Below, piece by piece: positions 4,736 to 60,544 of a DNA stretch of 64,000 bases (position 1 is the stretch's first letter; every line of letters starts with the position of its first letter). The translations under genes were made by a program, and so were the position numbers. This DNA comes from an uncultured Bacteroidales bacterium. GTDB taxonomy: Bacteria > Bacteroidota > Bacteroidia > Bacteroidales > VadinHA17. Below the pieces are notes generated by a model. It was given only the letters and a program-made list of their open reading frames with translations. It searched no databases and was not told where the DNA came from. The stretch is from assembly GCA_942492865.1 (NCBI GenBank), contig OW818650.1, forward strand, positions 1,960,564 through 2,024,563, given 5' to 3'.

Positions 4736-4792
4736 TAGATTTTTGTGTATTTGAATCTTTAAATATTATTAATGATTATCCTGAAACTTTTC

Positions 4793-4800: not shown

Positions 4801-4842
4801 CCGTTAATCAAGCTACAGATCATTCGTTACTTATAGTACAAT

Positions 4843-21300: not shown

Positions 21301-21390
21301 CTTCGCATATTAATTGCATCCTCCTTTAACATTCATTGTTAAGGCGACAGTGAGATTCCAATCCTGGTTTCATATTACGACCTCCTTAAA

Positions 21391-28800: not shown

Positions 28801-31514
28801 CAGGAACTACTTATACATGGACTGCACCTGTTTATATTGGCGGAGTGACAGGTGGTTCGGCCCAAACTGTACCCCAGCCGAATATTACAGGGACCCTGAG
28901 TATCCCCTCAGGAGCAGGGACCGCATCCTATACCGTAACACCTTCAAACGGATCATGTCCCGGAGCATCATTTACTGTCATAGTTATCGTCACTTCAACT
29001 TGTGTGAGTGCTACAATTTCCTCCCAGCCGGCAGACAGGAATATGTGTATGATCTCAGGAACATCATCATTTACGATTGGCGTAAACGGAACAACTCCTG
29101 TTGTATATCAATGGCAATACAATGACAGCGGCACATGGAGAAATGTTAGTAATGGCACTCCTTCCGGAGCTTCCTACACCGGATCAACGGGCGCCACTCT
29201 TGGTGTTTCAGGTATTACCCAGGCCGGAAGTCGGCAGTACCGCTGCCTGGTTTCCAATTGCGGCATCGCGACAAGTATTGCTTCAAATCCGGCAACGCTG
29301 ACAGTGGATCCGTTACCATCCGCACCTACCATAGGATCGGTTTTGCATCCTACATGTATAAATCCTACAGGTACGATCAATATCTCGGCTCCGACCGGAA
29401 CAGGATTTACTTATAGCATCAATGGGACCAACTATACAAATACAACCGGAGTATTTTCCAATGTCAGTGCAGGGAATTACACTGTCACTGCAAGAAGCGC
29501 ATCCGGATGTATTTCTCCCACAACCGCAGTGACAGTGAATGCTCAGCCGGCAACACCTCCGGCCCCAACAGTTACCCTCGTACAACCAACCTGTAATACT
29601 CCGACAGGTTCAGTAACCGTTACAGCTCCTACTGGTATCGGAATGACCTACAGTATCAACAATACTACTTATACAAACACTACCGGGGTATTCACCGCAG
29701 TAACAAGCGGTACATATACTGTTACCGCAAGAAACACTGCAGGATGTACATCAGCAGGAACAATCGTTAATATCCAGGCACAACCTTTAATACCGACAGT
29801 GACAGTAACCAATCCTGCAGCGGTCTGTTCTCCATCAACAGTCAATATAACTGCTCCTGCTGTTACGACCGGTTCAACCTCGAATCTGACTTACACCTAC
29901 TGGACTAATGCTGCGGCTACAGCAACGTATTCCACTCCAACGACAGCAAGTTCAGGCACTTATTATATTAAGGGAACTACAAGCGCAGGATGTTACGATG
30001 TTGCACCGGTGATTGTAACAGTCCTGCAAACGCCGACAGCCAATGCAGGGACCGGAGGGAATGAATGTGATCTCAACTTTCAGCTTAACGCAATATCAAG
30101 TGCAGGTACAGGCACCTGGACAATGACATCAGGTCCCGGCGCAGCATCGTTCAGTCCGAATGAAAACACACCAAATGCAATAGTTACTGTTTCGGTTTAC
30201 GGCACTTATACTTTCAGATGGACCGAAGTGAATGGTATCTGTTCAGGAAGTAACAGCATTACTGTTAACTTTTACCAGCAACCTGTTGCAAATGCAGGAA
30301 CAGGAGGCAATAATTGCGGACTTCAGTTCAATCTCAACGGGTCGATGAACGTGGGTACAGGAGTATGGACCAGAGTAAGCGGTACAGGCACTGTTTTATT
30401 CTCACCATCGGATACTTCTCCAAACGCTATAGTAACAGTACCTGGTTTTGGTGCATACAGGTTCAGGTGGACTGTTACCAATGGAACATGTTCAAACAGT
30501 TCGGATGTTAATGTTACTTTTGTCCAGCAGCCTGCAGCAAATGCAGGCTCAGGAGGTGAAGAATGCGACCTTGATCATATATTAAATGCTACACCAGGAA
30601 TTACAGGGGGGAAATGGAGTAAGATCAGCGGTCCGGGCGATGCAATTTTCAGCAATATTTCAAGCTATAATGCGACTGTAAGCGTTAGCAAAACAGGTAC
30701 TTATGAATTTGCCTGGACAATTGAAAACAGTTCGTGCAGCTCAATTGATTTCATAACAGTAGTATTCCATGAACTCCCTCAAATTTCAGCGGGCCCGGAT
30801 ACTGTAATTTGCGAAGATGGATCAGCCCAGCTTCACGCATCCGGCAATGGCAGCTTCATTTGGGAGCCTTCAGCCTCGCTCAGCAATCCTGCTCTGGTCA
30901 ATCCCGTTGCAACTCCTGTGACCACAACAGTATATTCCGTTACCCTTACCGATCAGAACGGATGTAAGAACAAAGACGATGTTAAAGTTGAGGTTTTGAC
31001 AAAGCCTGTTGCTGATGCAGGCTCTGACATAATACTGGAGTACCTTTTCAAAACATCCCTGGATGCAACAGCTTCTGATAACGGTTCCGGTACATGGTCA
31101 TTGATAACGGGCTCGGGGATTTTTAAAGATGCAACTGAAGAAAATACAGAAATAACAGGACTTTCACCCGGAATTAATGAATTCCGGTGGACTGTCACAA
31201 ACGGAGTATGCCCTGTTGTAAGCGATGACGTAACGGTAACTGTAAAGAACCTGGAAATTCCGACATTAATAACCCCTGATCACGGGGATGATTACAATGA
31301 ATATTTTATAATCAGGGGAATTGAAACTCTAGGAAAAACCTCTTTAATAATTTTTGACAGGAGAGGTGTTAAGGTTTATGAGAACAACAACTACAACAAT
31401 GATTGGAATGGGGTGGATTATAATAATAAGGACCTTCCGGAGGATACCTATTTTTATAATATCAAATCAGAGAATGTAAAACCGGTCAGTGGCTTTATTG
31501 TAATAAAAAGATGA
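25812..31514 (+). CDS. Giant T9SS-secreted cell-surface repeat protein (type-B / CHU_C C-terminal sorting domain)
   Basis: Signal peptide, then 11 x 78-aa Cys-bracketed repeats, an Ig-like segment (VYQWQYNDSGTWRNV), two CxxPTG repeats (HPTCINPTGTINISAPTG) and five ANAG.GG.EC modules. The C-terminus IPTLITPDHGDDYNEYFIIRGIE...DRRGVKVYE...WNGVD...LPEDTYFY matches the gliding-motility-associated C-terminal domain. Confidence 0.9.
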   Translation: MKRSLFQKYILLCLLNVFSLLLSAQIPTPFTVTGSGSYCVGSGGLAVGLDNSQADVLYTLYRDGTAQPDPVPGSGSSISFGNQLFGTYTVIGVNGDGTSGMNGSAVIIENPIPPAPSGSAIQTFCSGALPTVTNLTVTGTGIRWYDALTGGNLLTSSAALVNGSHYFASQTVDGCESNLRLDVTAVVNTTPPAPTGVSSQTFCSGALPTVTNLAVTGTGIRWYDALTGGNLLASSTALVNGSHYFASQTVDGCESNLRLDITAIVNTTPSAPAGSAIQTFCSGALPTVTNLAATGTGIRWYDALTGGNLLASSTALVNGSHYFASQTVDGCESNLRLDITAIVNTTPSAPAGSAIQTFCSGALPTVTNLAATGTGIRWYDALTGGNLLASSTALVNGTHYFASQTVDGCESNLRLDVTAIVNTTPSAPAGSATQTFCSGALPTVTNLTVTGTGIRWYDALTGGNLLTSSAALVNGSHYFASQTVDGCESNLRLDVTAVVNTTPPAPTGISTQTFCSGALPTVTNLAATGTGIRWYDALTGGNLLASSTALVNGSHYFASQTVDGCESNLRLDVTAIVNTTPSAPAGSAIQTFCSGALPTVTNIAATGTGIRWYDALTGGNLLTSSTALVNGSHYFASQTVDGCESNLRLDITAIVNTTPSAPAGSATQTFCSGALPTVTNLTVTGTGIRWYDALTGGNLLTSSAALVNGSHYFASQTVDGCESNLRLDVTAVVNTTPPAPTGISTQTFCSGALPTVTNLAATGTSIRWYDALTGGNLLASSTALVNGSHYFASQTVDGCESNLRLDVTAVVNTTPPAPTGVSSQTFCSGALPTVTNLTVTGTGIRWYDALTGGNLLTSSAALVNGSHYFAGQTVDGCESNLRLDVTAVVNTTPPAPTGISTQTFCSGALPTVTNLAATGTSIRWYDALTGGNLLASSTALVNGSHYFASQTVNGCESSSRLNITAVVNITPVIPNQTTAILTGTTFTITPEGAGVPAGTTYTWTAPVYIGGVTGGSAQTVPQPNITGTLSIPSGAGTASYTVTPSNGSCPGASFTVIVIVTSTCVSATISSQPADRNMCMISGTSSFTIGVNGTTPVVYQWQYNDSGTWRNVSNGTPSGASYTGSTGATLGVSGITQAGSRQYRCLVSNCGIATSIASNPATLTVDPLPSAPTIGSVLHPTCINPTGTINISAPTGTGFTYSINGTNYTNTTGVFSNVSAGNYTVTARSASGCISPTTAVTVNAQPATPPAPTVTLVQPTCNTPTGSVTVTAPTGIGMTYSINNTTYTNTTGVFTAVTSGTYTVTARNTAGCTSAGTIVNIQAQPLIPTVTVTNPAAVCSPSTVNITAPAVTTGSTSNLTYTYWTNAAATATYSTPTTASSGTYYIKGTTSAGCYDVAPVIVTVLQTPTANAGTGGNECDLNFQLNAISSAGTGTWTMTSGPGAASFSPNENTPNAIVTVSVYGTYTFRWTEVNGICSGSNSITVNFYQQPVANAGTGGNNCGLQFNLNGSMNVGTGVWTRVSGTGTVLFSPSDTSPNAIVTVPGFGAYRFRWTVTNGTCSNSSDVNVTFVQQPAANAGSGGEECDLDHILNATPGITGGKWSKISGPGDAIFSNISSYNATVSVSKTGTYEFAWTIENSSCSSIDFITVVFHELPQISAGPDTVICEDGSAQLHASGNGSFIWEPSASLSNPALVNPVATPVTTTVYSVTLTDQNGCKNKDDVKVEVLTKPVADAGSDIILEYLFKTSLDATASDNGSGTWSLITGSGIFKDATEENTEITGLSPGINEFRWTVTNGVCPVVSDDVTVTVKNLEIPTLITPDHGDDYNEYFIIRGIETLGKTSLIIFDRRGVKVYENNNYNNDWNGVDYNNKDLPEDTYFYNIKSENVKPVSGFIVIKR
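26148..28721 (+). repeat. Eleven tandem 234-bp (78-codon) repeats inside the adhesin gene
   Basis: The period is exactly 234 bp: antisense ORF ends fall at 26296, 26530 ... 28636, spaced by 234. Repeats 3 and 4 are essentially identical. The pair 5-6 recurs as 8-9, and repeat 6 recurs again as repeat 11. Confidence 0.95.
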
Positions 31515-34605: not shown

Positions 34606-34832
34606 AATGGCAATTTGTCAGGTTTCTGATTGCATTCATCAAAAAAGCTCATGCCAACTCCATTCTTTAATTATATTTAACCCTGTAAAGTTTAATCGAT
34701 CCTGTTGAATCCAGTCTTCTCAATTACAAATAACACATAGTCATTAGTGCCTGAAAACGGCTGTAATCAGATTATTATTATTATGTTAGAGGAAGATTCC
34801 AATGGGACTGACCATGCGAAAGCATTATAAAT

Positions 34833-34980
34833 GGCTCAGGGCACAGAGCACAGTGCAAAAGGATTCTTCACTAACCACTCACCACTCACGTCTCACTTCT
34901 TAATTCTTCCTCCCTGCACCCTGAGCTCTGAGCTTAACTCTGAAACCCTGAACCACTGAAACCACTGAAACACTGAAACA
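34833..34980 (+). repeat. Heptamer-tract composite element upstream of wza
   Basis: ATGGCTCAGG GCACAGA GCACAGT at the left. Then CACTAAC CACTCAC CACTCAC GTCTCAC, then CCCTGAGCTCTGAGC, then CTGAAAC-type units. It ends 17 nt before the wza ATG. Confidence 0.8.
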
Positions 34981-40936: not shown

Positions 40937-42199
40937 ATGAAATTTGCCAATATCAGTCTGGGCAGGGATGTTGAAATAGATCCTTCCACCTCAATTAATA
41001 ATGTTGTAATAGGCGATAAGGTCAGAATTGCCAAGCGATGCAGCATATATGGCAGCCCGGAGAACCCGCTGGAGTTGGGACCCAATTCTTATGTTGGTAT
41101 GAACAGCGTGCTTAATGGTTTTTCAGCCAAACTTACCATTGGGAAGAATGTCAGTATATCCCAGTTTGTCAATATAATGGTCGATTCGGGTCCAAATGCC
41201 TCTCCCGGTATGATGAGAATTTTTCCGATAGTCAAAGGGCCGGTAACGATCGGAAATGACAGCTGGATAGGATCCGGTGCAACGATAATGCCGAACGTGA
41301 CTTTAGGTGAGTACTGCGTAGTTGCGGCACACAGCTACGTAAATAAAAGTTTTCCTGCATTTTCGGTTATTGGAGGTTGCCCGGCAAAACTGATCAGGAC
41401 ATTCACAGATGAGGAGAAGGCCACAATGCTTGATGTTGAAAATAAAAGTCTCCCATGTAATTCCAGCAGTTATGAAGACAATTATCTTGATCTGCCATTT
41501 GAAGACGCACTCCGGAAATTCCGTTTCAGAAATCTTTTGACCAAGCTCAGGGAATACCCCCATAAACGAATTATTGAAATAGGCCCCGGGTCCAATCCGC
41601 TGTTCAGTTATTTCAGCGGATTCGAAAGAATGACAATAATTGAGCCTGGTAAAAATTTTGCAAAAATTGTGCGTACACAGATTGGTACAAGATCTGATAT
41701 AACGCTTATCAATGATACAATTGAAAACATATCAGGACAACTCGGGAATGACTCTTATGATTTGGTAATAATCGGAGGTTTTCTGCACGAAATAGACAAT
41801 CCGGATGCAGTCTTAAGTGCAGTGCGGGTTCTCTGTTCTGACGATACAGTTGTTTACACTTATGTGCCTAACGCTCAATCATTCCACCGGATACTTGCTT
41901 TCAAAATGGGACTGATAGAAAATGTTTTTCAGAAATCGGGGCACGATGAGTTATTTAAAAGGCAGAGTGTTTTTGATATTGAGTCTTTCAAAGCATTAAT
42001 GAGAAATCAGGGCTTTAAAGTAATTGATTCCGGGTCATATTTTATTAAACCATTCACCCATGACCAGATGAAAGCAATTATTGATAACCACATTATTGAT
42101 AATTCCTGTCTCGAAGGTCTGGATAAAATGGTTGAGTATCTGCCAGGTATGGGTTCAGAATTATGGTTTAGCTGTAAAAAAGATGATAAAATTTCTTGA
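40937..42199 (+). CDS. Fusion: left-handed beta-helix (hexapeptide) acyltransferase + class I SAM-dependent methyltransferase
   Basis: Residues 1-160 are hexapeptide repeats (IGDKVRIAKRCSIYG.., IGNDSWIGSGATIMPNVTLGEYCVVAAHSYV). Residues 200-420 carry the SAM motif IIEIGPGSNP and the acidic motif LVIIGGFLHEI. Confidence 0.75.
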   Translation: MKFANISLGRDVEIDPSTSINNVVIGDKVRIAKRCSIYGSPENPLELGPNSYVGMNSVLNGFSAKLTIGKNVSISQFVNIMVDSGPNASPGMMRIFPIVKGPVTIGNDSWIGSGATIMPNVTLGEYCVVAAHSYVNKSFPAFSVIGGCPAKLIRTFTDEEKATMLDVENKSLPCNSSSYEDNYLDLPFEDALRKFRFRNLLTKLREYPHKRIIEIGPGSNPLFSYFSGFERMTIIEPGKNFAKIVRTQIGTRSDITLINDTIENISGQLGNDSYDLVIIGGFLHEIDNPDAVLSAVRVLCSDDTVVYTYVPNAQSFHRILAFKMGLIENVFQKSGHDELFKRQSVFDIESFKALMRNQGFKVIDSGSYFIKPFTHDQMKAIIDNHIIDNSCLEGLDKMVEYLPGMGSELWFSCKKDDKIS

Positions 42200-43406
42200 T
42201 CTCAAAGCTGTTAATGATTCTTTCGGAGATGAGCTTTCGGAAGCAGTTAACCGTGTCCTTAAGTCAGGATGGTATCTGCTTGGAAATGAAGTAGGCGATT
42301 TCGAAAAAAGCTATGGGTCTTATATAGGATCAAAGCATTGCATTGGTGTGGCAAATGGTCTGGATGCACTCAGGCTCATTTTCAGAGCCTATATGGAATT
42401 GGAAATGATGAAGGAAGGAGATGAAATCATTGTTCCGGCGAATACTTATATAGCATCCATTCTTGCAATAACTGAAAACCGGTTAAAACCCGTCCTGGTT
42501 GAGCCGCAAATAAATAACTATAATATAGACGTTTCATTAATTGAAAAGAGCATTACTGCCCGCACACGTGCAATTATGGTCGTTCATCTTTACGGCAGGA
42601 CCTGCTGGTCTGAAAACCTGGAGGATATTGCTGCCAGATACAATCTGAAGATAATAGAGGATAATGCACAAGCGGCAGGAGCGATGACGATGGCTCAGAG
42701 CTCAGAGCGCAGAGCGCAGGAGAAGAAGGCACAGGGCACAGGGCACAGAGCTCAGGAGGAAATGGCTCAGAGCTCAGAGCTCAGGGCTCAGGGCAAGAAA
42801 GAGATGACCCTGAAACGAACTGGTTCATTGGGAGATGCAGCCGGTCACAGTTTTTATCCGGGGAAAAATTTAGGTGCCATAGGAGATGGAGGCGGAGTCA
42901 CTACTGATGATGATGAACTTGCTGCGGTTGTAAGATCGCTGGCGAACTATGGTTCTTCAAAGAAGTATGTATTCGAATATCAGGGATTGAATTCAAGGCT
43001 TGACGAGATACAGGCAGCAGCATTAAATGTAAAGTTGCGCAGGCTTGACCATGATAACCAGCGCCGCCGTGAAATCGCTAAATGTTATATTGAAAATATA
43101 AGGAATCAGGGAATAATTTTACCTGAAAATCCAACCTTTGACCTTTCTCATGTATGGCATCTTTTTGTTGTCCGCTCACTGTTCAGAGAACGTTTGCAGA
43201 ATTATCTTATTGAGAACGGGATACAAACGCTGATCCACTACCCTGTACCGCCTCATCAACAACAGGCATATAAGGAGTGGAATGATTTAATATTCCCATT
43301 AACTGAAAAAATTCACCGGGAAGTATTGAGTATGCCGATAAGCCAGGTAATGAATGATAATGAAATGGAGCAGGTTATTAATATTATCAATAAATTCTCC
43401 GTTTAG
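42183..43406 (+). CDS. DegT/DnrJ/EryC1/StrS aminotransferase (FdtB/QdtB-like) carrying a ~39-codon repeat-derived insertion
   Basis: MIKFLDLKAVNDSF.., IIEDNAQAAGA, GSLGDAAGHSFYPGKNLGAIGDGG and ANYGSSKKY..GLNSRLDEIQAA. The listed start 42081 lies inside the previous gene, so ATG 42183 is used. Confidence 0.85.
   Translation: MIKFLDLKAVNDSFGDELSEAVNRVLKSGWYLLGNEVGDFEKSYGSYIGSKHCIGVANGLDALRLIFRAYMELEMMKEGDEIIVPANTYIASILAITENRLKPVLVEPQINNYNIDVSLIEKSITARTRAIMVVHLYGRTCWSENLEDIAARYNLKIIEDNAQAAGAMTMAQSSERRAQEKKAQGTGHRAQEEMAQSSELRAQGKKEMTLKRTGSLGDAAGHSFYPGKNLGAIGDGGGVTTDDDELAAVVRSLANYGSSKKYVFEYQGLNSRLDEIQAAALNVKLRRLDHDNQRRREIAKCYIENIRNQGIILPENPTFDLSHVWHLFVVRSLFRERLQNYLIENGIQTLIHYPVPPHQQQAYKEWNDLIFPLTEKIHREVLSMPISQVMNDNEMEQVINIINKFSV
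42690..42806 (+). repeat. Heptamer-tract element embedded in-frame in the aminotransferase CDS
   Basis: ATGGCTCAGA GCTCAGA GCGCAGA GCGCAGG ... GGCACAG GGCACAG GGCACAG AGCTCAG ... ATGGCTCAGA GCTCAGA GCTCAGG GCTCAGG. It translates as MAQSSERRAQEKKAQGTGHRAQEEMAQSSELRAQGKKE. Confidence 0.85.
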
Positions 43407-48666: not shown

Positions 48667-48700
48667 ATTGTTCGTACCCGGAAATAGGTTCAAAGAGCAG

Positions 48701-49963
48701 ATGAATAACACTCCGGCATATTTACTACCTGTCCCAAAGCTGAATAGCGGGAACTATCTTATTTTATTCATTTTATGGCCATTTCTGAGTTTCATGCTGG
48801 CAGTTATCAATTTCAGCCAGAAAGAAGCAAGAAAGGTAATCTATATATTTTTCATTTATTATGGACTTACATTTGTAATAAGTGAACTGGGAGGATATGG
48901 ACCTGATGCCGAACGTCAGGCTTTACGGCTTATTACTGCTGCCAGGCAGCCATTTTCAGAATTTTTTAAAATAGTCGGTGACCTTTATGTAGCCGAAGAT
49001 TCGGTTGACCTCATACAGCCACTCTTGATTTTCTTTGTATCACGGTTTACTAATGATTACGGTTTTCTGTTTGCTATTTATGCAGCTTTCTTCGGATTCT
49101 TCTACCTTAAAAGCATTAAGCTGGTCTACAGGCACTTTTATGAAAATCCGGGGTATAACTCACTTATTCATTTGATCTTCTTTGTGCTGATTATTCCAAT
49201 TACATTCATTAATGGTTTCAGGATGTGGACAGCAGCATGGATTTTCTTCTTTGGGGCATATAATGTTGTATTAAATCGTGATCCGCGGTATCTCCTTATT
49301 GCTTTATGTTCTTCATTTGTTCATTTTAGTTTTTTTAGTGCCAGTGCAGTGCTCGCTATCTATTACTTTGCCGGTAACCGGAACATAATTTATTTCCCGC
49401 TGGCGGCAGTCTCCTTTGTCCTTCCGCAATTGCTGGCTCCATTATTTCAATCTCTGTCACTCAGATTGGGCGGAGGAATTCAAAACAGGTATGAAGGATA
49501 TGCCGGCGAGAATTATATTTTGCACAGGCAGGATGAACTGGCTCAGGGTGCCTGGTTCCTCAGGATGAGCAATGATCTTGTCTTGTATTACCTGCTCTTT
49601 GCAATTTTTATAATCCAGCTTAATTCAAAAACCCGCGAAAAAACCCAGGAAGAAAAAAATCTGTACAGCTTTACCCTTCTTTTTCTTTCATTTGTGAATT
49701 TTGGTTCAATAATCCCATCCTTCGGAGGAAGGTTTATGCTGGTGTTCTTTTTGTTTGCCACATTGTATATTATTTACTATTTCATGAAAATTTCCGGAAC
49801 CCGGATTAACTGGCTAACAATTATTGGATTATTCCCTATGCTTCTTTACATTATTGTAAATTTAAGGATAGGATTTCCATCTGTTAATGCCTGGATCTTT
49901 GTTCCCGGATTGGGATTGCCATTATTTATGCCCGACCTCTCCTTATTTGAAGTTTTATTTTGA
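48701..49963 (+). CDS. EpsG/Wzy-like polysaccharide polymerase membrane protein
   Basis: About 11 TM helices, aromatic-rich with no soluble domains, in the expected polymerase position beside the GTs. ATG 48701 is preferred to TTG 48668. Confidence 0.55.
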   Translation: MNNTPAYLLPVPKLNSGNYLILFILWPFLSFMLAVINFSQKEARKVIYIFFIYYGLTFVISELGGYGPDAERQALRLITAARQPFSEFFKIVGDLYVAEDSVDLIQPLLIFFVSRFTNDYGFLFAIYAAFFGFFYLKSIKLVYRHFYENPGYNSLIHLIFFVLIIPITFINGFRMWTAAWIFFFGAYNVVLNRDPRYLLIALCSSFVHFSFFSASAVLAIYYFAGNRNIIYFPLAAVSFVLPQLLAPLFQSLSLRLGGGIQNRYEGYAGENYILHRQDELAQGAWFLRMSNDLVLYYLLFAIFIIQLNSKTREKTQEEKNLYSFTLLFLSFVNFGSIIPSFGGRFMLVFFLFATLYIIYYFMKISGTRINWLTIIGLFPMLLYIIVNLRIGFPSVNAWIFVPGLGLPLFMPDLSLFEVLF

Positions 49964-51099
49964 TGAAGAACAAACCAGGTTATGCTCATCTGCGGGCACT
50001 TGTCTCACAGAATCTGATTAATATTAGAGGATGGAGAACTCCTGACAAGTTCATTGTTATCGAAAGTGACGACTGGGGAAGTATCAGGATGCCATCAAAT
50101 GAGGTTTATTCAAAATTCCTGAAAAAAGGACTGGAACTTACAGGAAGCGACTATAACAGACTTGATTCCCTCGAAAGCAATGATGATCTGATAAACCTGT
50201 ATGAAGTCCTTCACTCGTTCAGGGATTCGCACGGCAATCCCCCTGTGGTTACCGCAAATATGGTTGTAGGTAATCCTGATTTTAAAAAGATAAGGGAGTC
50301 AGATTTCAATGACTATTATTATGAACCGGTTACAGAAACGCTCAGAAGATATGATGGCCGTGAAAAGGTTGAATCTCTCTGGTTGCAGGGAAAGACTGAA
50401 AAGGTCTTCCATCCACAATTTCATGGCCGTGAACACGTCAATGTTGTCAGGTGGATGAGTGCTCTCAGGAAGAAAACACCGGGGATAATGTTCGCATTTG
50501 AAAATGAGACAACATTCTCGGGTGAGGGGGATTATAATTTCATGGAGGTTCTTGATTATAATAGCAGGGCTGACCTTGTAAAAATGAAGGAAAGTCTTGT
50601 TGAAGGACTGAACAATTTTGAAAAAATATTTGGTTTCAGGTCGCAGTCATTCATTCCGCCATGCTATACCTGGGATAGCAATATTGAGGAAACACTTTAT
50701 ATAAACGGGGTAAATTATATCCAGGGACTGGTAATTCAATCAGTACCCACCGGTTCATTCGGGAAGTACACAAAGAAAATTCATTATATGGGAAAGCGGA
50801 ACTCCTGCGGACAGTATTATCTCATCAGGAACTGCTTTTTCGAACCCTCTCTTTCCAAAAAAACTGATCCGGTTGGAGACTGCCTTAACCGTATAAATGT
50901 CGCTTTCAGATGGCATAAACCGGCAATAATTGGCAGTCATCGTATAAACTTTATAGGATCACTAGATGAAAGTAACAGGGATAACAATTTAAGATTACTG
51001 AAAGAGCTTCTTTCCCGGATATTGAAAGAATGGCCCGAAGTCATCTTCATTACTTCAGATCAGCTTGGTGAAATGATGGCGGGGGAGCGGAGAGCGTAA
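49963..51099 (+). CDS. Uncharacterised protein, paralogue of 62693..63802 (possible divergent NodB-like deacetylase)
   Basis: Shares IESDDWGSIRMPS, NPDFKKIR, FHGREH, RNCFFEP and AFRWHKPAIIGSHRINF with the second copy. The stop codon TAA (51097-51099) lies inside the first GCGTAAA heptamer of the downstream element. Confidence 0.6.
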   Translation: MKNKPGYAHLRALVSQNLINIRGWRTPDKFIVIESDDWGSIRMPSNEVYSKFLKKGLELTGSDYNRLDSLESNDDLINLYEVLHSFRDSHGNPPVVTANMVVGNPDFKKIRESDFNDYYYEPVTETLRRYDGREKVESLWLQGKTEKVFHPQFHGREHVNVVRWMSALRKKTPGIMFAFENETTFSGEGDYNFMEVLDYNSRADLVKMKESLVEGLNNFEKIFGFRSQSFIPPCYTWDSNIEETLYINGVNYIQGLVIQSVPTGSFGKYTKKIHYMGKRNSCGQYYLIRNCFFEPSLSKKTDPVGDCLNRINVAFRWHKPAIIGSHRINFIGSLDESNRDNNLRLLKELLSRILKEWPEVIFITSDQLGEMMAGERRA

Positions 51100-51628
51100 A
51101 GCGGAGAGCGTAAAGCGTAAAGCGTAAAGCGTAAAGAGGAAAGAGGAAAGAGAGTACCCATTATTATAAAGGACAGTGAGTAAGATTGAGAGTCATAAAG
51201 ATTTAATTGTTTATCAAAAGGCGTACAAGCTGGCAATGGAGATTTTTGAAATATCCAAAAGTTTTCCGAAAGAGGAAAAATATTCACTGACAGACCAAAT
51301 TAGAAGATCATCGAGATCTGTGACTTCATGCCTGGCTGAATCATGGGCAAAGAGAAGGTATGAAAAAGCATTTGCTAACAAACTTACAGACTCACTGGGT
51401 GAAGAAAATGAAACAGAAGTCTGGCTTGATTATTCAAAAGACTGCAAATATATTACTGATGCGGAACATGTCAACTTTATGAATGAATATTTAGAGGTCC
51501 GTAAAATACTTATATCTATGATCAATAACCTGGATAAGTGGTGCAATAATTAATTTCTCCATTCTCTCCTCTTTTTTCTTTCTTTACGCTATACGCTAAA
51601 CGCTCTACGCTCACCTCTCATCGCTTCA
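51087..51628 (+). mobile_element. IVS-like cassette: four-helix-bundle gene bracketed by heptamer-built imperfect inverted repeats
   Basis: Left arm 51087-51154: GCGGAGA GCGTAAA GCGGAGA (GCGTAAA)x4 (GAGGAAA)x2 GAGAG. Right arm 51556-51628: CTCTCCTCTTTTTTCTTTCTTTACGCTATACGCTAAACGCTCTACGCTC followed by ACCTCTCATCGCT. The arms are about 75-80 percent reverse-complementary over ~45 nt. Confidence 0.4.
51176..51553 (+). CDS. Four-helix-bundle protein (23S rRNA intervening-sequence protein family, PF05635-like)
   Basis: HKDLIVYQKAYKLAMEIFEISKSFPKEEKYSLTDQIRRSSRSVTSCLAESWAKRRY...EVWLDYSKDCKYI is the family hallmark. GTG start as listed. Confidence 0.85.
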   Translation: MSKIESHKDLIVYQKAYKLAMEIFEISKSFPKEEKYSLTDQIRRSSRSVTSCLAESWAKRRYEKAFANKLTDSLGEENETEVWLDYSKDCKYITDAEHVNFMNEYLEVRKILISMINNLDKWCNN

Positions 51629-51631
51629 TAA

Positions 51632-52783
51632 ATGCAATCTGAAAAAATAAACACAGATCCCATAAAGATCCTCCTAACCGGAGACTTCTGTCCCCACAAC
51701 CGGATTGAGAAACTGGCTCTTAAAGAAGACTTCGGAGCAATCTTCAATGATTTCATTGATGTGTTTCAGGGGAATGATCTGAATATTACTGACCTGGAGT
51801 GCCCTTTGACAACATCGGAAACAGCAAGACCAAAAACGGGTCCCCATCAGAAGGCTCATCCCGATTGTATTAATATCCTGAAATATGCAGGGATTAACCT
51901 TGCTGCGATGGCAAATAATCATATCATGGATTATGATAACAATGGTATTCAGGATACAATTGATCTTTGCAAAAGAGCAGAAATTAATACGGTTGGTGTG
52001 GGGCAATCTCTGGAAGCTGCTTCAAAACCTTTTTCAGCAAATATAAAGGGGAAAAGATTTGCAATACTGAATTATGCTGATAACGAGTTCCTGTCAACTC
52101 CGGACGGATCATTTACATGTAATCCATTGGATCAGGTCCGCTTGTTTTATGATATCAAAAATGCCAGGCAAACCAATGATTTTCTGATAATAATCGTTCA
52201 TGCCGGGAATGAGTTTTTTGAATTGCCATCACCCCGGACAAAGAGGTTATACAGGTATATTGCTGATCTCGGTGCTGATGTGGTAATTGCCCATCACACA
52301 CATGCCTGGTCGGGATATGAAATATATGATTCAAAACCAATCTTCTACGGATTGGGAAACTTTATCTATGACTGGCCCGGAAAATTGAATTCAAGGTGGA
52401 ACCAGGGTTATGTTGTGAGGCTTAAAGTATCTGATAGAACTGACTTCGAAATTATCCCAATTAAACAATGCAATGAGATTCCGGGAGTTTTTCATCTCAA
52501 TTCAGAGGAGATTGGGGGCTTTTTAAATGAGATGGATCGTCTCAATAAAATAATTGCCGATGACGATCATCTGGAAACTGAATTTCAGAAATACTGTAAG
52601 TCAGTCCAGCCAATGTATGAAGCATTCATTGAACCAAATTTTGGCAAAAAAATTGCATCACTAAGAAAAAGAGGATTATTTCCTAAACTAATGTCCAAAA
52701 GAAAACGCCTTCTTCTGTTAAATATCACACGCTGTGAATCTCATCGTGATGTTCTTCAAAGAATGCTTAAACAATATGAATAA
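51632..52783 (+). CDS. CapA-family (PGA_cap) metallophosphatase-fold protein
   Basis: ILLTGDFCP...ECPLT...NLAAMANNHIMDYDNNGIQDTIDLC...GVG and VHAGNEF...VIAHHTHAWSGYE match the CapA/PGA_cap pattern. Confidence 0.75.
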   Translation: MQSEKINTDPIKILLTGDFCPHNRIEKLALKEDFGAIFNDFIDVFQGNDLNITDLECPLTTSETARPKTGPHQKAHPDCINILKYAGINLAAMANNHIMDYDNNGIQDTIDLCKRAEINTVGVGQSLEAASKPFSANIKGKRFAILNYADNEFLSTPDGSFTCNPLDQVRLFYDIKNARQTNDFLIIIVHAGNEFFELPSPRTKRLYRYIADLGADVVIAHHTHAWSGYEIYDSKPIFYGLGNFIYDWPGKLNSRWNQGYVVRLKVSDRTDFEIIPIKQCNEIPGVFHLNSEEIGGFLNEMDRLNKIIADDDHLETEFQKYCKSVQPMYEAFIEPNFGKKIASLRKRGLFPKLMSKRKRLLLLNITRCESHRDVLQRMLKQYE

Positions 52784-52784
52784 A

Positions 52785-52927
52785 GCGTAGAGCGTAAAGC
52801 GTAAAGCGTAAAGCGTAAAACGTAAAGCGTAAAGCGTAATGGAAAGAGAATAGAGAAGGTGTATTTGTCTCTACGCTCTACGCTCTACGCTCATCACTCA
52901 CCTCTCATCACTCATCGCTACCCTCTC
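52785..52927 (+). repeat. Cargo-less heptamer hairpin element between capA-like and asnB
   Basis: The left arm runs in strict register from 52785: GCGTAGA (GCGTAAA)x4 ACGTAAA GCGTAAA GCGTAAT GGAAAGA GAATAGA. After a spacer come (CTCTACG)x3 (52869-52889), then TCATCAC TCACCTC TCATCAC TCATCGC up to the asnB ATG. Confidence 0.9.
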
Positions 52928-52929
52928 AT

Positions 52930-54864
52930 ATGTGTGGAATAACCGGATATCTTAATTTAAATCAGCAACCTGTTGATAATTCAGGGCCCATCCTGAAGAT
53001 GCTGAATGTTCAGAAGCACCGGGGACCGGATGATTCAGGGATCAGGGCTTTTAGTCTTACTAAAGGTCAGTCAATTGAAGTTGAGACAGGCGGTCTCCGG
53101 AAAATAGATGGATATTTTGAAGGTATTCTGGGTTTTAACAGGCTCAGCATACTGGACCTCTCGGCTAACGGGCACCAGCCTATGGAGAGTCCCGATAAAA
53201 GAGTACTACTGGTCCTGAATGGTGAAATATACAATGCATTCGATTTTAAAAATGAGCTTAAAGAATGGGGATATTCCTTTAAAAGCACTTCCGATACGGA
53301 GATCGTACTTGCACTTTATCTCAGATATGGGTTTGACGGATTGCTTGAGCGTCTTAACGGAATGTTTGCAATTGTAATAGCAGATCTCGGCCGGAATGAG
53401 CTCTTTATTACGCGCGACAGATTTGGCATTAAACCCATGTACTATATCTCAACAGGGACAAGGCTGGCATTCTCCTCTGAAATTAAAAGCTTTAAGTATC
53501 TTGAAAATTTTACTTTCCGTCTCGATGAAGACCAGCTCGATGAATTTCTTCTCTTCCGGAATAACCTTTCAGATACATTGTACCGCGATGTTCTCTCTCT
53601 TACCCCCGGGTATTATTTAAATTACAGTCCTAAGAACGGCCTGTTGAAGAAAAGGTACTTTAATATTAACGATTACATGCGGTCAGGTGAAGCCACAGGC
53701 GACATTGAATCCTTCACGGTCACGCTTGAAAAAACGCTGGCTCAAAGTGTTAAAAGTCAGCTAATGAGCGATGTAAAGCTGGGATGCCAGCTTTCAGGTG
53801 GAATAGACTCGTCTTTGGTTACATGGCTCGCTAACCGTAATAATGGTGGAAATAACTTTGAGGCCGTTTCTATAATTTTCAATGATAAACGATTCAGTGA
53901 AGAGAGATATATCGATATTGTTACTGACAAACTTGAAATTCCTTCACATAAGTTTCTGCTGGATCCGGGTTATTATTTTGAAAATTTTGAACGTGCTACC
54001 TGGCATTTTGAGGCGCCTCTTAATCATCCTAATACAATTGCCATATATAAATTGTCGCAGCGGGCAAAGGAATATGTGACTGTACTTCTGAGCGGGGAAG
54101 GCGCTGATGAGGTATTTGGTGGCTATGAAAGATTTTATCAGTTAGCCTATCCATTCAGGATGAGGAAGTTGCTCAGTGTAGTCAAAAAATATGCCATACA
54201 CCCTGATGGATTTACTGATTACTTTGACCAGACTTCAAGGGCAATAATGGCCACATCGTTCATGATCCCTTCCCTGGCAGCGAAGCTTAGGGATGGATTC
54301 AGCAAAGAAAGAGCGACATCAGGCCGCAGAACTTTGTACATGTCACTGAGTGGTTCCCTTTTTGATAAGCAGGTAAAATATGAGATAAACTCCTATCTGC
54401 CCGACCTGCTTCTCAGACAGGATAAGATGTCGATGGCACATTCAATAGAGAACCGTGTTCCTTTTCTTGATAATACAGTCGTTGAAACTGCATTCACCAT
54501 TCCTGAAAACCTTCTGCTTCTCAGAAAAAGCGCCGAGGGGTCCAATACAGAAAAGTATCTTCTTAAGAAAATGACTTCAAAGATCTTTGGAAATGACTTC
54601 GCTTTCAGAAATAAAATGGGGTTCGGAATTCCGGTTCGTGAGTTCCTTATGGATAGAAGATTTTCGGTATTTCTTAATGATAAAGTGATCCCTGGGATAA
54701 AAAGACGAGGGATATTTAATTACAAACTGGCCTCGGAATGGTTCTCAAAAATAGGAACCCTGAAGTATTTCGAACTAGATGCATTATGGGTGATGGTTTC
54801 ATTTGAAGTATGGGCTTCATTATACCTTGACAATAATTATGAAAATAGCAATTCACAATACTAA
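52930..54864 (+). CDS. asnB: Asparagine synthase (glutamine-hydrolysing) family amidotransferase
   Basis: N-terminal MCGITGY (Ntn Cys2) and the synthetase-domain PP-loop LSGGIDSS. 644 aa. Confidence 0.9.
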   Translation: MCGITGYLNLNQQPVDNSGPILKMLNVQKHRGPDDSGIRAFSLTKGQSIEVETGGLRKIDGYFEGILGFNRLSILDLSANGHQPMESPDKRVLLVLNGEIYNAFDFKNELKEWGYSFKSTSDTEIVLALYLRYGFDGLLERLNGMFAIVIADLGRNELFITRDRFGIKPMYYISTGTRLAFSSEIKSFKYLENFTFRLDEDQLDEFLLFRNNLSDTLYRDVLSLTPGYYLNYSPKNGLLKKRYFNINDYMRSGEATGDIESFTVTLEKTLAQSVKSQLMSDVKLGCQLSGGIDSSLVTWLANRNNGGNNFEAVSIIFNDKRFSEERYIDIVTDKLEIPSHKFLLDPGYYFENFERATWHFEAPLNHPNTIAIYKLSQRAKEYVTVLLSGEGADEVFGGYERFYQLAYPFRMRKLLSVVKKYAIHPDGFTDYFDQTSRAIMATSFMIPSLAAKLRDGFSKERATSGRRTLYMSLSGSLFDKQVKYEINSYLPDLLLRQDKMSMAHSIENRVPFLDNTVVETAFTIPENLLLLRKSAEGSNTEKYLLKKMTSKIFGNDFAFRNKMGFGIPVREFLMDRRFSVFLNDKVIPGIKRRGIFNYKLASEWFSKIGTLKYFELDALWVMVSFEVWASLYLDNNYENSNSQY

Positions 54865-55861
54865 GGGTTTCTTCTGCGATCGCTGGATCCCATATTGTCA
54901 GGAAAATAATGTTGATTACAGAATTGTGGATTGCTACAGTTCGGATATAATGCAGCAAATATCTGACTGTGATATTCTTATGTGGCATTTCAACCATAAA
55001 AGCCCAAAGGCAAGCAAGTTTGCCAAACAGCTGCTTTACTCAGTAGAAGCTTGCGGTAAAAAGGTATTTCCTGATTTTAATACTGTCTGGCATTTTGATG
55101 ATAAAGTGGGACAAAAGTATCTGCTCGAATCGTTAGGAGCCCCGCTGGCACCTTCTTATGTATTCTACGACAAAAAGGAAGCACTTGAATGGGCTGGAAA
55201 TACATCCTTCCCAAAAGTTTTCAAGTTACGCAATGGGGCCGGGTCTGATAATGTGAAACTGGTCAGATCAAAAAAAGAAACAGTAAGGATTATCAATAAG
55301 GCCTTCGGACGAGGATTCAGACAATATGAGGGATGGATTAATCTGAAGGAGAGATACAGGAAGTACAGGCTTGGAAAAACCACCTCATGGAATGTGATGA
55401 AGGGAGTTTTGAGGCTTTTCCATAAAACAGAATATGCAAGGGTTACAGGCAAAGAAATCGGATATGCCTATTTTCAGGACTTTATTCCGGACAACGATCA
55501 TGATATCCGGGTTATAGTAATCGGCAACAAGGCATTTGCAATAAAAAGAATGGTACGTGATAATGATTTCAGGGCTTCAGGAAGCGGAATGATACTTTAC
55601 GATAAGGAGCTTTTTGATGACGATACTATCCGTTTATCATTTGAGATCTCTGAAAAGCTTGGATCTCAGAGCATGGCGTATGATTTTGTTTTTCTGAACG
55701 GCAAACCCCTGATCGTTGAGATAAGCTATGGATTTGCAATGCATGGTTATGATCCATGCCCCGGTTACTGGGACCGTAATCTGGTGTGGCATGCCGGTAA
55801 ATTCAATCCTTATGGATGGATGGTTGAGGACATTTTAAGAAGCGTTGAGAAGAAAGCGTAA
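54839..55861 (+). CDS. ATP-grasp domain protein
   Basis: FPKVFKLRNGAGSDNVKLVRSKKE and YFQDFIPDNDHDIRVIVIGNKAFAIKRMVRDNDFRASGSG fit an ATP-grasp fold. ATG 54839 (MKIAIHN) is preferred to 54803. The stop TAA (55859-55861) lies inside the first GCGTAAA heptamer. Confidence 0.6.
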   Translation: MKIAIHNTKGFFCDRWIPYCQENNVDYRIVDCYSSDIMQQISDCDILMWHFNHKSPKASKFAKQLLYSVEACGKKVFPDFNTVWHFDDKVGQKYLLESLGAPLAPSYVFYDKKEALEWAGNTSFPKVFKLRNGAGSDNVKLVRSKKETVRIINKAFGRGFRQYEGWINLKERYRKYRLGKTTSWNVMKGVLRLFHKTEYARVTGKEIGYAYFQDFIPDNDHDIRVIVIGNKAFAIKRMVRDNDFRASGSGMILYDKELFDDDTIRLSFEISEKLGSQSMAYDFVFLNGKPLIVEISYGFAMHGYDPCPGYWDRNLVWHAGKFNPYGWMVEDILRSVEKKA

Positions 55862-55977
55862 AGCGTAGAGCGTAGAGCGGAAAGAATAAGCGTAGAGCGT
55901 AGAGCGTAAAGCGTAGAGAGTAGAGAGTAATTTTTCTGAGCCCTGAGCTCTGAGCCCTGAGCCCTGAGCCCTGAGCC
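55856..55977 (+). repeat. Heptamer-tract composite element (GCGTARA tract followed by CTGAGCY tract)
   Basis: GCGTAAA GCGTAGA GCGTAGA GCGGAAA GAATAA GCGTAGA GCGTAGA GCGTAAA GCGTAGA GAGTAGA GAGTAAT, a TTTT spacer, then CTGAGCC CTGAGCT (CTGAGCC)x4. Confidence 0.9.
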
Positions 55978-55997
55978 AAAGTGAATATATAAACAAG

Positions 55998-57083
55998 ATG
56001 CAGAAGGTAAAAGTATGTCTGGTAATTCCGTCACTACAGGCAGGAGGGATGGAAAGGGTAATGTCAGAGCTTGCATGGCACTTTTCTTCAAAGCAGAAAA
56101 TTGAAATACATCTTGTCCTTTATGGAATATCACGGGAGATCTTTTACCCCGTCCCTGAAACTGTAATAATTCATAAACCTGCATTCACCTTCAATAATGA
56201 CAGGCGATTTTACAGTACTGTACGAACTCTCTTTTATCTGCGAGGGATCATAAAAAAACTAAAGCCCTACAGTATTCTTAGTTTCGGTGAATACTGGAAC
56301 AGCTACCTTCTTCTTGCATTGCTGGGATTGAATTCACGGGTATTTGTATCAGACAGGTGTCAGCCGGATAAAAGCCTGGGCAAATTTCATGACCTGCTTC
56401 GGAAAATATTGTATCGTAAATCAGCCGGGATAATAGTACAGACATCCGCGGCAAAGGAGATCTACCAGGCAATGATCTCTAATGAGAACATACAAGTCAT
56501 TGGCAATCCCATCAGAAGTATTTTAACCGGAGGCAGTAATGCTGGACGGGAAAATATCGTGCTGACTGTGGGAAGACTTATAATGTCAAAGCATCATGAT
56601 AAGCTTATCGAACTGTTTTTGAAGATCTCAAAACCAGGTTGGAAGCTGGTCATTGTCGGGTATGATCATCTTAAACAGGAGGTGTCACTTAAACTGAAGA
56701 AAATAATCGAAGAGAATAATGCCGGCGACACGGTAATTCTTGCCGGAAAACAGAAAAATACCGATGAATACTACCTTAAAAGCAGGATATTTGCTTTTAC
56801 CTCAAGCTCAGAAGGTTTCCCCAATGTCATCGGCGAGGCTATGTCGGCCGGCTTACCTGTCGTTTCCTTTGATTGCATCGCCGGCCCTTCAGAGATGATA
56901 GCAGATAATATAAATGGATTTTTGATACCGTTATTCGATTTTGATCTTTTTCAAAAAAAACTGGAATACCTGATGGATAATGATGAGATTAGATTTAAAA
57001 TGGGGGACAAAGCAAAAGATGATATCAAAAAATTCTCAATTGAGCGAATCGGAGAGCAGTATCTTAAAGTTCTCCTTAGTTAA
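55998..57083 (+). CDS. Family 4 glycosyltransferase
   Basis: VCLVIPSLQAGGMERV at the N-terminus and the EX7E region SSSEGFPNVIGEAMSAGLPVVSFDC. Confidence 0.85.
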   Translation: MQKVKVCLVIPSLQAGGMERVMSELAWHFSSKQKIEIHLVLYGISREIFYPVPETVIIHKPAFTFNNDRRFYSTVRTLFYLRGIIKKLKPYSILSFGEYWNSYLLLALLGLNSRVFVSDRCQPDKSLGKFHDLLRKILYRKSAGIIVQTSAAKEIYQAMISNENIQVIGNPIRSILTGGSNAGRENIVLTVGRLIMSKHHDKLIELFLKISKPGWKLVIVGYDHLKQEVSLKLKKIIEENNAGDTVILAGKQKNTDEYYLKSRIFAFTSSSEGFPNVIGEAMSAGLPVVSFDCIAGPSEMIADNINGFLIPLFDFDLFQKKLEYLMDNDEIRFKMGDKAKDDIKKFSIERIGEQYLKVLLS

Positions 57084-57112
57084 GATTAAAAATTTTACTA
57101 AAAAAAAGTTAT

Positions 57113-58033
57113 ATGAAAGTAATAGTTACAGGTGGCGCAGGATTTATCGGGTCAGCAGTTGTACCTGTTCTGCAGAAGGAAGGTTATGATGTATTTGTAC
57201 TGGATAACCTGTCATCAGGAAACCGGAAGTTCATTGATGTCAGGGATGATCACTTCTTCCTTACTGACATCAGGAATGCTGCAGATGTAAAGTCAGTTTT
57301 TTTATCAGTTAAACCGGAAATAATTGTTCATCTGGCAGCGATACATTTTATACCTTATTGTAACCAGCATCCGTTTGAAGCGGCCGATATCAACATTCGC
57401 GGAACAATCAACATTCTTGATGCAGCCAAAGGTACCAAGACCATTAACAAGTTGTTTTTTGCATCCACCGCGGCAGTATATCCGATATGCAATGATGCGG
57501 TTGATGAAAAACATGAACTTCTCCCTCTGGATATTTACGGATTAAGCAAACTTACAGGAGAAAGATTGTGCAAAGAATTTTTTCTTGAAACTAAAACGGA
57601 CACAATAGTCTGCAGGTTTTTTAATGCATTCGGACCAAATGAAACCAATCCCCACCTGATACCTGAAATTGAAAAGCAGCTGAAAGCTGGAGCCAGGACA
57701 ATTAAATTAGGGAATCTTACCCCAAAGCGAGATTTCATTCATACTCATGACATGGCATCTGCCGTAAAGCAATTGTTAAAGCTTAAGGATACAGGGTATG
57801 ATACCTTCAATCTGGGTCAGGGTGCCGAGTATTCAGTGGTGGAAATTGTTGAAGCCTTTGAACGGCAGTTAAATGAAAAGATAAAAATTGAAGTGGATCC
57901 CGACAGGGTGAGGAAAGTTGAACGTGAGCATCTCCTTGCCAATGTTACAAAGCTCAAGACAGTTGCCGGTTGGAAGCCTGTCTGGGGAATTAATGAAGGA
58001 ATAAAGAACCTGGTTGATAGCTGGAAAAATTAA
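57113..58033 (+). CDS. NAD-dependent epimerase/dehydratase (extended SDR)
   Basis: Rossmann motif VTGGAGFIGS, the catalytic YGLSK (YxxxK), and about 306 aa. Confidence 0.85.
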   Translation: MKVIVTGGAGFIGSAVVPVLQKEGYDVFVLDNLSSGNRKFIDVRDDHFFLTDIRNAADVKSVFLSVKPEIIVHLAAIHFIPYCNQHPFEAADINIRGTINILDAAKGTKTINKLFFASTAAVYPICNDAVDEKHELLPLDIYGLSKLTGERLCKEFFLETKTDTIVCRFFNAFGPNETNPHLIPEIEKQLKAGARTIKLGNLTPKRDFIHTHDMASAVKQLLKLKDTGYDTFNLGQGAEYSVVEIVEAFERQLNEKIKIEVDPDRVRKVEREHLLANVTKLKTVAGWKPVWGINEGIKNLVDSWKN

Positions 58034-60430: not shown

Positions 60431-60450
60431 AACTGATCTTAGTAAGGCAC

Positions 60451-60544
60451 GATTTCGGATTTCGGATTTCGGATTGATTCACCATTAGCATTCCAATCCG
60501 CAATCCACCTTCCGCAATCCGCAATTACAGGATTTCGGATTTTT
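60451..60544 (+). repeat. Heptamer hairpin element (GATTTCG / CAATCCG tracts)
   Basis: (GATTTCG)x3 GATTGAT at 60451-60478. CAATCCG CAATCCA CCTTCCG CAATCCG CAATTAC at 60494-60528. GATTTCG GATTTTT at 60531-60544. The tracts are near-complementary with one mismatch per heptad. Confidence 0.9.

Follow-up and report, generated by a model that had tools for sequence, protein, structure and literature searches.

The 146-nt spacer between a capA-like gene and an asnB-type asparagine synthase gene, in a polysaccharide-biosynthesis operon of an uncultured Bacteroidales bacterium, holds a period-7 hairpin without a cargo gene. We regard this spacer as probably the unoccupied allele of a site for a hairpin cassette of the intervening sequence (IVS) type, because the same junction is full in two related loci (L203 and L216), and a second, independent junction, between a short-chain dehydrogenase/reductase (SDR) gene and a PglD gene, is full in one locus (L204) and empty in another (L215). 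The DNA analysed, termed the window, is a stretch of 64,000 nt of contig OW818650.1 (positions 1,960,564 to 2,024,563), to which all unlabelled coordinates refer. Every gene from 34.9 to 63.8 kb of the window lies on the + strand, in the polysaccharide operon. An upstream gene of 379 aa (up379) precedes capA and asnB, and the up379/capA and capA/asnB junctions are called J1 and J2. In the window, J1 carries an occupied cassette and J2 the empty hairpin, referred to below as the twin. The parts of the region are listed here, with the third heptad junction of the operon at the end.

52781 to 52783, + strand: capA stop codon TAA, which the left arm of the twin abuts
52785 to 52840, + strand: left arm of the twin, eight GCGTARA-family heptads (period 7, 8.4 copies, 92% matches in Tandem Repeats Finder, TRF)
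52841 to 52854, + strand: degenerate heptads GGAAAGA GAATAGA, resembling the middle of the twins in L001 and L004
52855 to 52868, + strand: 14-nt loop or spacer GAAGGTGTATTTGT; full alleles hold a 375-nt gene at the equivalent place
52869 to 52889, + strand: right arm (CTCTACG)3 (3.4 copies, 100% matches in TRF), complementing the left arm
52890 to 52929, + strand: CTCAYCN-family leader heptads, reaching the asnB ATG
51632 to 52783, + strand: capA-like PGA_cap gene, upstream cistron, with a right arm before it and a left arm after it
52930 to 54864, + strand: asnB-type asparagine synthase gene, downstream cistron, with its ATG at 52930
51085 to 51154, + strand: left arm of the occupied cassette, with GCGGAGA, GCGTAAA and GAGGAAA heptads
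51176 to 51553, + strand: cargo gene for a four-helix-bundle protein of PF05635 (23S_rRNA_IVP)/TIGR02436, with PDB relatives 2RLD and 2GSC
51563 to 51631, + strand: right arm of the occupied cassette, CTYTACG-type heptads followed by CTCACCTCTCATCGCT; forms a long-range stem with 51085-51154
55853 to 55977, + strand: third junction (ATP-grasp/GT4), about ten GCGTARA heptads and then a non-complementary (CTGAGCC)6 tract

The eight heptads of the left arm read, in order, GCGTAGA, four times GCGTAAA, ACGTAAA, GCGTAAA and GCGTAAT, and the leader reads CTCATCA CTCACCT CTCATCA CTCATCG CTACCCTCTCAT, without any ATG, GTG or TTG. The arms pair with 88% complementarity over 24 nt (52790-52813 with 52869-52892), or 91% over 23 nt (52784-52806 with 52869-52891), the mismatch being one A.C per heptad. 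An earlier reading of the locus made from the letters alone (the sequence-only reading) had described these arm sequences, the gap of about 14 nt and the A.C mismatch correctly; it was mistaken in placing the sequence that ends in CGCT directly before the ATG, since 10 nt (ACCCTCTCAT) intervene. Each heptad of the left arm holds TAA or TAG, and, as the unit length of 7 is not divisible by 3, three heptads suffice to stop every frame, so that changes of heptad number at a gene end are harmless; the complementary arm holds no such stops. The left arm starts at the capA stop also in L001, L004 and L203, and 6 nt past it in L216. At J1 the stop of up379 (51097-51099) is itself the TAA of a GCGTAAA heptad, the arm encoding the final residues of the protein, and such an arm-encoded C-terminus is likewise found in L001 and L013. 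The CTCAYCN module also lies 3′ of the right arm in the cassette of the window (51612-51625), in the L001 and L004 twins and at the empty L215 site. We considered whether these heptads might be a relic of an older cassette type that the GCGTARA type replaced, and rejected the idea because the unrelated empty site of L215 and several other genomes have the module after the right arm as well.

The twin and the occupied cassette share their tract types and the order of these tracts. Identity between the two is 82% in the left arms, over 67 nt, and 82% in the right arms, over 45 nt; shuffling the order of heptads reached the left alignment score of 84 in 7 of 2000 trials and the right score of 44 in 72 of 2000, and mononucleotide shuffles reached the observed scores in none of 2000. 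The sequence-only reading had claimed the same arm types at both places, naming arms no more similar than shuffled heptamer tracts as the finding that would overturn it, and the arms proved more alike than the shuffles. The middles of the twins in the window and L001 align with the GAGGAAAGAG stretch of the window cassette (51133-51154; p 0.008-0.012), and significant likeness of the twin middle is limited to this cassette of its own window (GGAAAGAG). Period 7 alone is enriched in the window, with 12 tracts (466 nt) vs 0-1 for periods 5, 6 and 8-11, and the pattern GCGTAAAGCGTAAA, allowing at most two mismatches, has 23 matches vs 0.19 expected. The long-range stem of the cassette (51068-51635) folds with a z of -4.6, and the complementarity of its arms has a z of 13.

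The up379-capA-asnB triplet is kept in about 50 metagenomic loci, among which heptads at J2 are confined to the closest group. The twin itself is found in the window, L001 and L004, each time with the similar middle AAAGA.(A/C)ATAGAGAAG set between the two arms. Searching species-representative genomes for (GCGTARA)3 led to a further locus (L158), the full context of which is L203, from a Bacteroidales metagenome-assembled genome (MAG). Here both junctions are full, the order being up379, a four-helix-bundle gene, capA, a second such gene, asnB, ATP-grasp and GT4. At J2 of L203 the left arm runs from the capA stop (..CAATATGAATAG CGTAGAGCGTAAAG..), a 124-aa gene follows, and CTTTAYG/CTCTACG heptads lead to the asnB ATG. 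L216 is the mirror image of the window, its J2 occupied by a TIGR02436 gene and its J1 empty. The four-helix-bundle gene that the sequence-only reading had suggested looking for at this junction in related strains is thus present in L203 and L216. Apart from L203, the gene is found at J1 in the window, L001, L004/L005 and L013, and is absent at the other J1 loci. The J1 gene of the window is 88% identical in DNA to the J2 genes of L203 and L216, and with the J1 genes it shares 83% (L001), 79% (L004) and 69% (L203). Parsimony on gene trees gave no direction of change, as the capA, asnB and up379 trees disagree.

Other states of these junctions were seen among the same loci. About 45 more distant J2 loci lack a hairpin and have plain spacers of 3-111 nt, except for L019 and L055: the former (4125-5247) carries a 1.1-kb insert with a radical-SAM-like gene that is not of the four-helix-bundle kind, and the latter (662-1812) a 1.1-kb insert with an IS200-like (Y1 transposase-like) gene, whose GC-rich flanking palindromes are unlike those of the twin. 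Other heptads occupy orthologous junctions in L003, with (CTCATAA)n and GCCCTGA, and in L011, with (AAAAGTA)n, and a one-heptad palindrome, AAGCGTA..TACGCTT, stands at a junction of L008. A compound arrangement was observed in L001 (5160-5990), which holds an intact gene, a right arm, the last approximately 20 codons of a second copy (YLEVRKMLISMINNPEKWCS*) and a second right arm; further 3′ lie two unrelated small open reading frames (ORFs) and a third right arm, and then capA.

The same architecture recurs beyond the triplet. Genes of the subfamily were chosen solely for the similarity of their proteins (over 120 clusters with 81-89% identity; 7983 proteins at E <= 1e-10), and those sampled lie in polysaccharide loci at the SDR/PglD (L204), ACP-synthase-III/SDR (L215) and HicA/ABC transporter (L205-L214) junctions. 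In all of them the left flank has GCGTARA heptads and the right flank heptads of the complementary type. Together with up379/capA and capA/asnB, the GCGTARA arms therefore flank the gene at five junction types, and they also stand beside the gene in a Cloacimonas MAG at 47% protein identity. The empty SDR/PglD site of L215 is a 158-nt hairpin in which the arms abut and CTCAYCN heptads follow. Across 12 full cassettes, arm complementarity reaches z >= 4 in eight, and the J1 cassettes without arm pairing are those of L004 and L013, the two that have in-frame stops. Truncated 3′ gene ends persist with a right arm in L001 and L204, and these remnants, together with the in-frame stops of the J1 copies in L004 and L013, indicate that cargo decay does occur. 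In L205-L214, where the gene lies at 3001-3375, a hairpin lacking cargo stands immediately after the full cassette, and each of the two left arms is preceded by a copy of the boundary AAACTAACAGCGTA.

As sequences, the arms are microsatellites with a heptanucleotide unit, and their length changes in steps of whole heptads. In ten population variants with identical protein, the right spacer measures 231, 266, 273 or 308 nt, the differences of 35, 42 or 77 nt being whole heptads, and orthologous twins likewise differ in heptad count.

At greater distance we picked 16 homologues (31-53% identity) from plasmid records by tblastn alone. A strong lag-7 tract lies within 120 nt of the ORF in 7 of the 16, vs 0.2% of background windows, several others have tracts of period 8 or 9, and complementary flanks were found in 10 of the 16 (score >= 15 vs about 7 in controls). 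The heptads vary by lineage, being AGCAGGG/CCCTGCT in Nostoc and GGGTGTA/TACACCC in Calothrix. The homologue of Azospirillum (L221) sits inside a 23S rRNA gene, between arms GAGGACG GATGACA GAGGACG GAGGACA and their complement. Two cyanobacterial plasmids carry the gene between cas6 and cas4 of type I-D CRISPR-Cas operons (L227, 2498-2866; L228, 2504-2863), and the Pseudanabaena cas6/cas4 copy has long CTAAAAG and CCAAAAG heptad arrays in direct orientation. Transposase or integrase genes adjoin some of the distant plasmid homologues. Scans of viral contigs with the protein and with the alignment gave no relative, and within the collection scanned the cassette is not phage-borne. From these comparisons the gene-in-hairpin architecture is family-wide, the classical rRNA IVS included. 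The view of the sequence-only reading that the arms, not the ORF, define the element can be kept in part: the same arms do recur at five junction types, but arms are generic and vary by lineage, and it is the gene and the architecture that recur.

Of the known systems, the 23S rRNA IVS with an S23p/IVP ORF, as in Leptospira and Coxiella, is the closest. In Coxiella, RNase III cuts the 28-bp terminal stem of the IVS, and S23p is preceded by tandem GACAGAT heptamers in numbers that vary between strains (PMC4990558). The window cassette shares with these elements the cargo family PF05635/TIGR02436, the placement of the ORF in the loop of a long stem made by terminal inverted repeats, copy-variable heptamers beside the ORF (GACAGAT in Coxiella, PMC4990558; GAGGACN arms in the Azospirillum IVS) and a sporadic presence that differs among relatives. 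The ORF itself is found in the cassette (51176-51553) and not in the 14-nt loop of the twin, at whose junction it is present in L203 and L216. Unlike the IVS, the cassette and twin lie between protein genes in the mRNA of a polysaccharide operon and not in helix 9, 25 or 45 of rRNA; the cassette arms are heptad microsatellites of up to about 70 nt that abut stop and start codons; and an empty hairpin allele exists at the cassette site. RNase III excision is established for Coxiella only (PMC4990558) and is a putative property of the cassette. The element is most like the rRNA IVS with S23p ORF, yet it lies outside the rRNA location that defines that family. Our search of the literature found no description of such cassettes between protein-coding genes.

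The arms by themselves belong to the known class of heptanucleotide simple-sequence repeats. Bacterial examples include the long simple sequence repeats (LSSR; Mrazek et al. 2007, as cited in PMC4679880), the cyanobacterial short tandemly repeated repetitive sequences (STRR) and TAACTGA in Beggiatoaceae, and heptamers beside start codons are known from Beggiatoaceae, cyanobacteria and Bacteroidetes (PMC4679880). As in those repeats, 7-mers lie head to tail between genes, often just upstream of start codons and sometimes in frame within ORFs (42690-42796 in the window), with copy-number variation and in the same phyla. The known repeats are described as direct repeats of one heptamer, whereas here we find a complementary inverted pair of fixed polarity, which in the cassette is tied to a specific gene family able to fill the loop.

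Other comparisons are less close. Miniature inverted-repeat transposable elements (MITEs) and solo hairpins, such as the repetitive extragenic palindromic sequences and bacterial interspersed mosaic elements (REP/BIME), Correia and BrickBuilt, are also short, non-coding, inverted-repeat sequences between genes of operons with a longer ORF-bearing form. In the twin and cassette, however, there is no fixed terminal sequence, the arms varying by whole heptads among relatives and population variants; the long form encodes a four-helix-bundle protein alone and no known recombinase; no direct repeat suggestive of target-site duplication was seen outside the arms at J1 (..ATGGCGGGG | .. | TCATAAATG) or J2 (..GAATAA | .. 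| ACCCTCTCAT); and no transposase stands beside the Bacteroidales or Cloacimonas cassettes whose neighbours were examined. The lack of fixed ends, target duplication and transposase means that the element is not a MITE. With REP/BIME the twin shares the position of an intercistronic palindrome, and no conserved unit sequence was found. Integron attC cassettes resemble it in their promoterless small ORF, imperfect inverted repeat with periodic mismatches, co-directional placement and occupied and empty states; unlike them, it has no attI, its inverted repeat surrounds the ORF instead of lying 3′ of it, and its sites are scattered among operon genes, with no integrase among the cassette neighbours examined. 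Finally, Avd of the diversity-generating retroelements (DGRs) belongs to a homologous four-helix-bundle fold family (PF22296, E 2.4e-7; NF033474, 27.6 bits), but 27.6 bits is below the equivalog cut-off of 80 bits, and among the genes from 48668 to 58033, which are sugar-pathway enzymes, no reverse transcriptase matched; template and variable repeats were not searched for. The element is neither MITE, integron cassette nor DGR. The sequence-only reading had offered a choice between a hairpin left behind after cargo loss and a MITE-like ancestral form; of this, the cargo-less counterpart stands and the MITE-like character, in the sense of a transposon, does not, and neither loss nor a never-occupied site is favoured, given the missing footprint (below) and the discordant trees.

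The cassette runs from a GCGTARA 5′ arm, which starts at or supplies the upstream stop, through a short leader and a 124-aa TIGR02436 gene co-oriented with the operon, to a 3′ arm of complementary heptads and then, usually, CTCAYCN heptads up to the next start codon. Replication slippage would lengthen and shorten the arms. A double crossover of the RecA type, or gene conversion, between the arms of an occupied and an unoccupied site could add or remove the cargo, which could alternatively be lost by deletion across the stem, so that no dedicated transposase would be required. In a polycistronic mRNA the full cassette would fold into a long stem that RNase III could cut, by analogy with the rRNA IVSs, and such a cut would free the mRNA of the small gene and leave the neighbouring cistrons intact. 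Such harmless cutting would account for the restriction of these cassettes to the tips of rRNA helices and the spacers between cistrons. The hairpin without cargo is probably a weak leftover stem that does little beyond supplying a frame-independent stop tract and a leader free of start codons.

That said, several observations weigh against an unoccupied cassette site at J2. L203 and L216 represent one lineage (their capA genes are 89% identical in DNA), so the occupancy of J2 counts as a single event. The twin middle showed no significant footprint when compared with the inner flanks of the full J2 cassettes; the candidate that it (..GAGAATAGAGAAGG..) is a homologue of the leader of full J2 sites, and the complement of their inner right flank, was dropped because shuffles gave p 0.09-0.74. 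In the L001 twin there are two mismatches per heptad and pairing is lost without compensation, and a single tract type is retained at J2 in L002 (right-type heptads alone) and in L003, with (CTCATAA)n alone. The sense RNA of the empty hairpin, at -40.4 kcal/mol (z -2.3), is marginally below its shuffles. Finally, the (GCGTARA)3 scan gave at least 117 loci, and among the matches listed, whose hosts include Bacteroidales MAGs, Chloroflexota, Planctomycetota, Patescibacteria, Cloacimonas, Gammaproteobacteria and others, 87% of 125 tracts are without a complementary partner and four loci, about 3%, adjoin a four-helix-bundle gene. As the tracts elsewhere are mostly solitary, the same heptads could arise at this junction without a cassette history.

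The last point leads to the rival that survives best, which we nevertheless hold unlikely: generic heptanucleotide microsatellites of the LSSR/STRR type would have expanded in place around a short spacer or palindrome that never had a four-helix-bundle history, and the likeness to the cassette would reflect the preferred heptads of the lineage. Besides the many partnerless tracts in many phyla, unrelated period-7 tracts at other sites of the same operon (34869-34980, 42690-42796, 55853-55977 and 60448-60540), the other heptads at the same junctions in L003, L011 and L008 and the start-codon-adjacent heptamers of other bacteria (PMC4679880) all suit such an origin. Against it stand the order of heptad subtypes, common to twin and cassette beyond heptad-order shuffles, the occupancy of this very junction in L203 and L216, and the recurrence of the order GCGTARA, complement, CTCAYCN at the SDR/PglD site that is empty in L215 and full in L204. 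Moreover, among the matches listed, complementary partners are 13 times commoner downstream than upstream of a tract (13% vs 1% of the 125, with 1% in controls), the gaps to the downstream partner being 18-95 nt (n = 9), 227-325 nt (n = 4) and 493-677 nt (n = 3).

An extension of the cassette reading, which we rate as quite unlikely, is that TIGR02436 genes and heptad arms together make up one widespread, unnamed class of selfish IVS-type cassette whose protein acts on heptad repeats. Such a cassette may colonise transcribed sites at which cutting of the RNA is harmless, as in rRNA helix tips, intercistronic spacers and cas operons, and may use RNase III for its own removal from the RNA. The protein it encodes might bind the heptads, mobilise the cassette, or seed or extend the repeats in trans, perhaps in partnership with a reverse transcriptase, as its homologue Avd is in DGRs. 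If this were true, the abundant heptanucleotide microsatellites, solitary or paired, of cyanobacteria, Bacteroidota and Beggiatoaceae, the empty hairpin included, would be footprints or landing pads of a selfish cassette.

It is very unlikely, in our judgement, that selection maintains the twin as an RNA hairpin between cistrons, which would stabilise the operon mRNA, process it or attenuate it, like the enterobacterial REP/BIME, with cargo irrelevant to it. Such a role would agree with its position between co-directional cistrons, with the architecture and similar middle common to the window, L001 and L004, and with the orientation of GCGTARA tracts with the upstream gene, as among the matches listed 50% of tracts start where a same-strand ORF of 100 or more codons has its stop codon (random positions 5%, opposite strand 9%); heptamers in Nostoc are also reported to affect expression of recF and recO (bioRxiv 10.1101/2022.06.06.494920). 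However, the antisense strand folds better (-57.6 kcal/mol, z -6.1) than the barely significant sense strand, because A.C turns into G.U, and no compensatory changes are found: L001 pairs worse, L002 and L003 have lost one arm, and the approximately 45 distant loci are hairpin-free. A scan of 50900-53100 for terminators and promoters found nothing above shuffles, and an Rfam search had nothing at gathering score, with just chance matches to plant miRNA models on the minus strand at E < 1; no rRNA was found in the window. With its sense fold, the worse pairing in L001 and the lack of an Rfam family or terminator, the empty hairpin bears little sign of selection as RNA.

The weakest rival, a highly improbable one as a replacement for an unoccupied cassette site but compatible with it and not exclusive, makes the heptad tracts portable homology patches that bracket whole genes, with capA as the unit, and serve gene-by-gene exchange in polysaccharide loci: the window capA is 82-84% identical in DNA to L001-L003 and the flanking up379 and asnB 65-69%, where other locus pairs have diverged about equally in all three genes, sliding identity climbs at J1 and falls at J2, and capA stands between the right arm of the cassette and the twin's left arm, whose complementarity is 90% over 30 nt, yet this is a single case for which gene-specific rate differences could account, inverted flanking repeats, not being direct, do not alone promote excision, and the four-helix-bundle gene between arms in unrelated contexts is left unexplained. 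As an observation in its own right, 49960-54864 compared with L001-L004 is a mosaic in which capA and the four-helix-bundle gene have 82-90% DNA identity to L001-L003 and up379 and asnB 55-78%, with identity steps that coincide with the two heptad junctions, which suggests recombination with breakpoints at the heptad tracts of the window locus.

The 64-kb window contains a single full copy, a single empty one and a chimeric tract, the last at 55853-55977, where the joining of GCGTARA heptads to (CTGAGCC)6 shows that tracts are modular and their families combinable. Two more heptad hairpins, both cargo-less and of other families, were noted in the operon region, one at 34831-34980 with GGCTCAG/GGCACAG tracts and their complement beside CACTCAC and 8-mer AACACTGA tracts, and one at 60448-60540 (GATTTCG .. 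CAATCCG .. GGATTTCGGATT). The ORF at 42081-43406, for an aminotransferase of the DegT/DnrJ/EryC1 type, contains at 42690-42796 an in-frame insert of about 39 aa, MAQSSERRAQEKKAQGTGHRAQEEMAQSSELRAQGKKE, which is coded wholly by GGCTCAG/GGCACAG-type heptads just before the PLP-lysine motif and at which the L215 homologue is gapped. Two further repeats lie elsewhere in the window. A non-coding block occurs at 20650-21835 in two copies about 535 nt apart and 97-98% identical, each built from a 61-nt unit, present about six times, with GATCCCTTGCTGCG at its end, and the ORF at 25812-31514 (1900 aa) encodes a repeat-domain protein with 11 tandem copies of a 234-nt unit (91% matches) at 26148-28716.

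The origin, mobility and function of rRNA IVSs and of their S23p/IVP ORF have been open questions since the early 1990s. The locus described here links them to the meaning of heptanucleotide repeats in cyanobacteria and Bacteroidota, as one gene family occurs between inverted heptad arms both in a 23S rRNA gene and in the spacers of operons, and J2 is seen full in some related genomes and empty in others. For genome annotation, it accounts for odd, assembly-breaking spacers of polysaccharide loci. Pairs of full and empty alleles provide material for tracing how the cassette enters and leaves a site, and excision at the RNA level is a testable idea for why cassettes would be tolerated, and a reason to ask whether the four-helix-bundle protein recognises the heptads.

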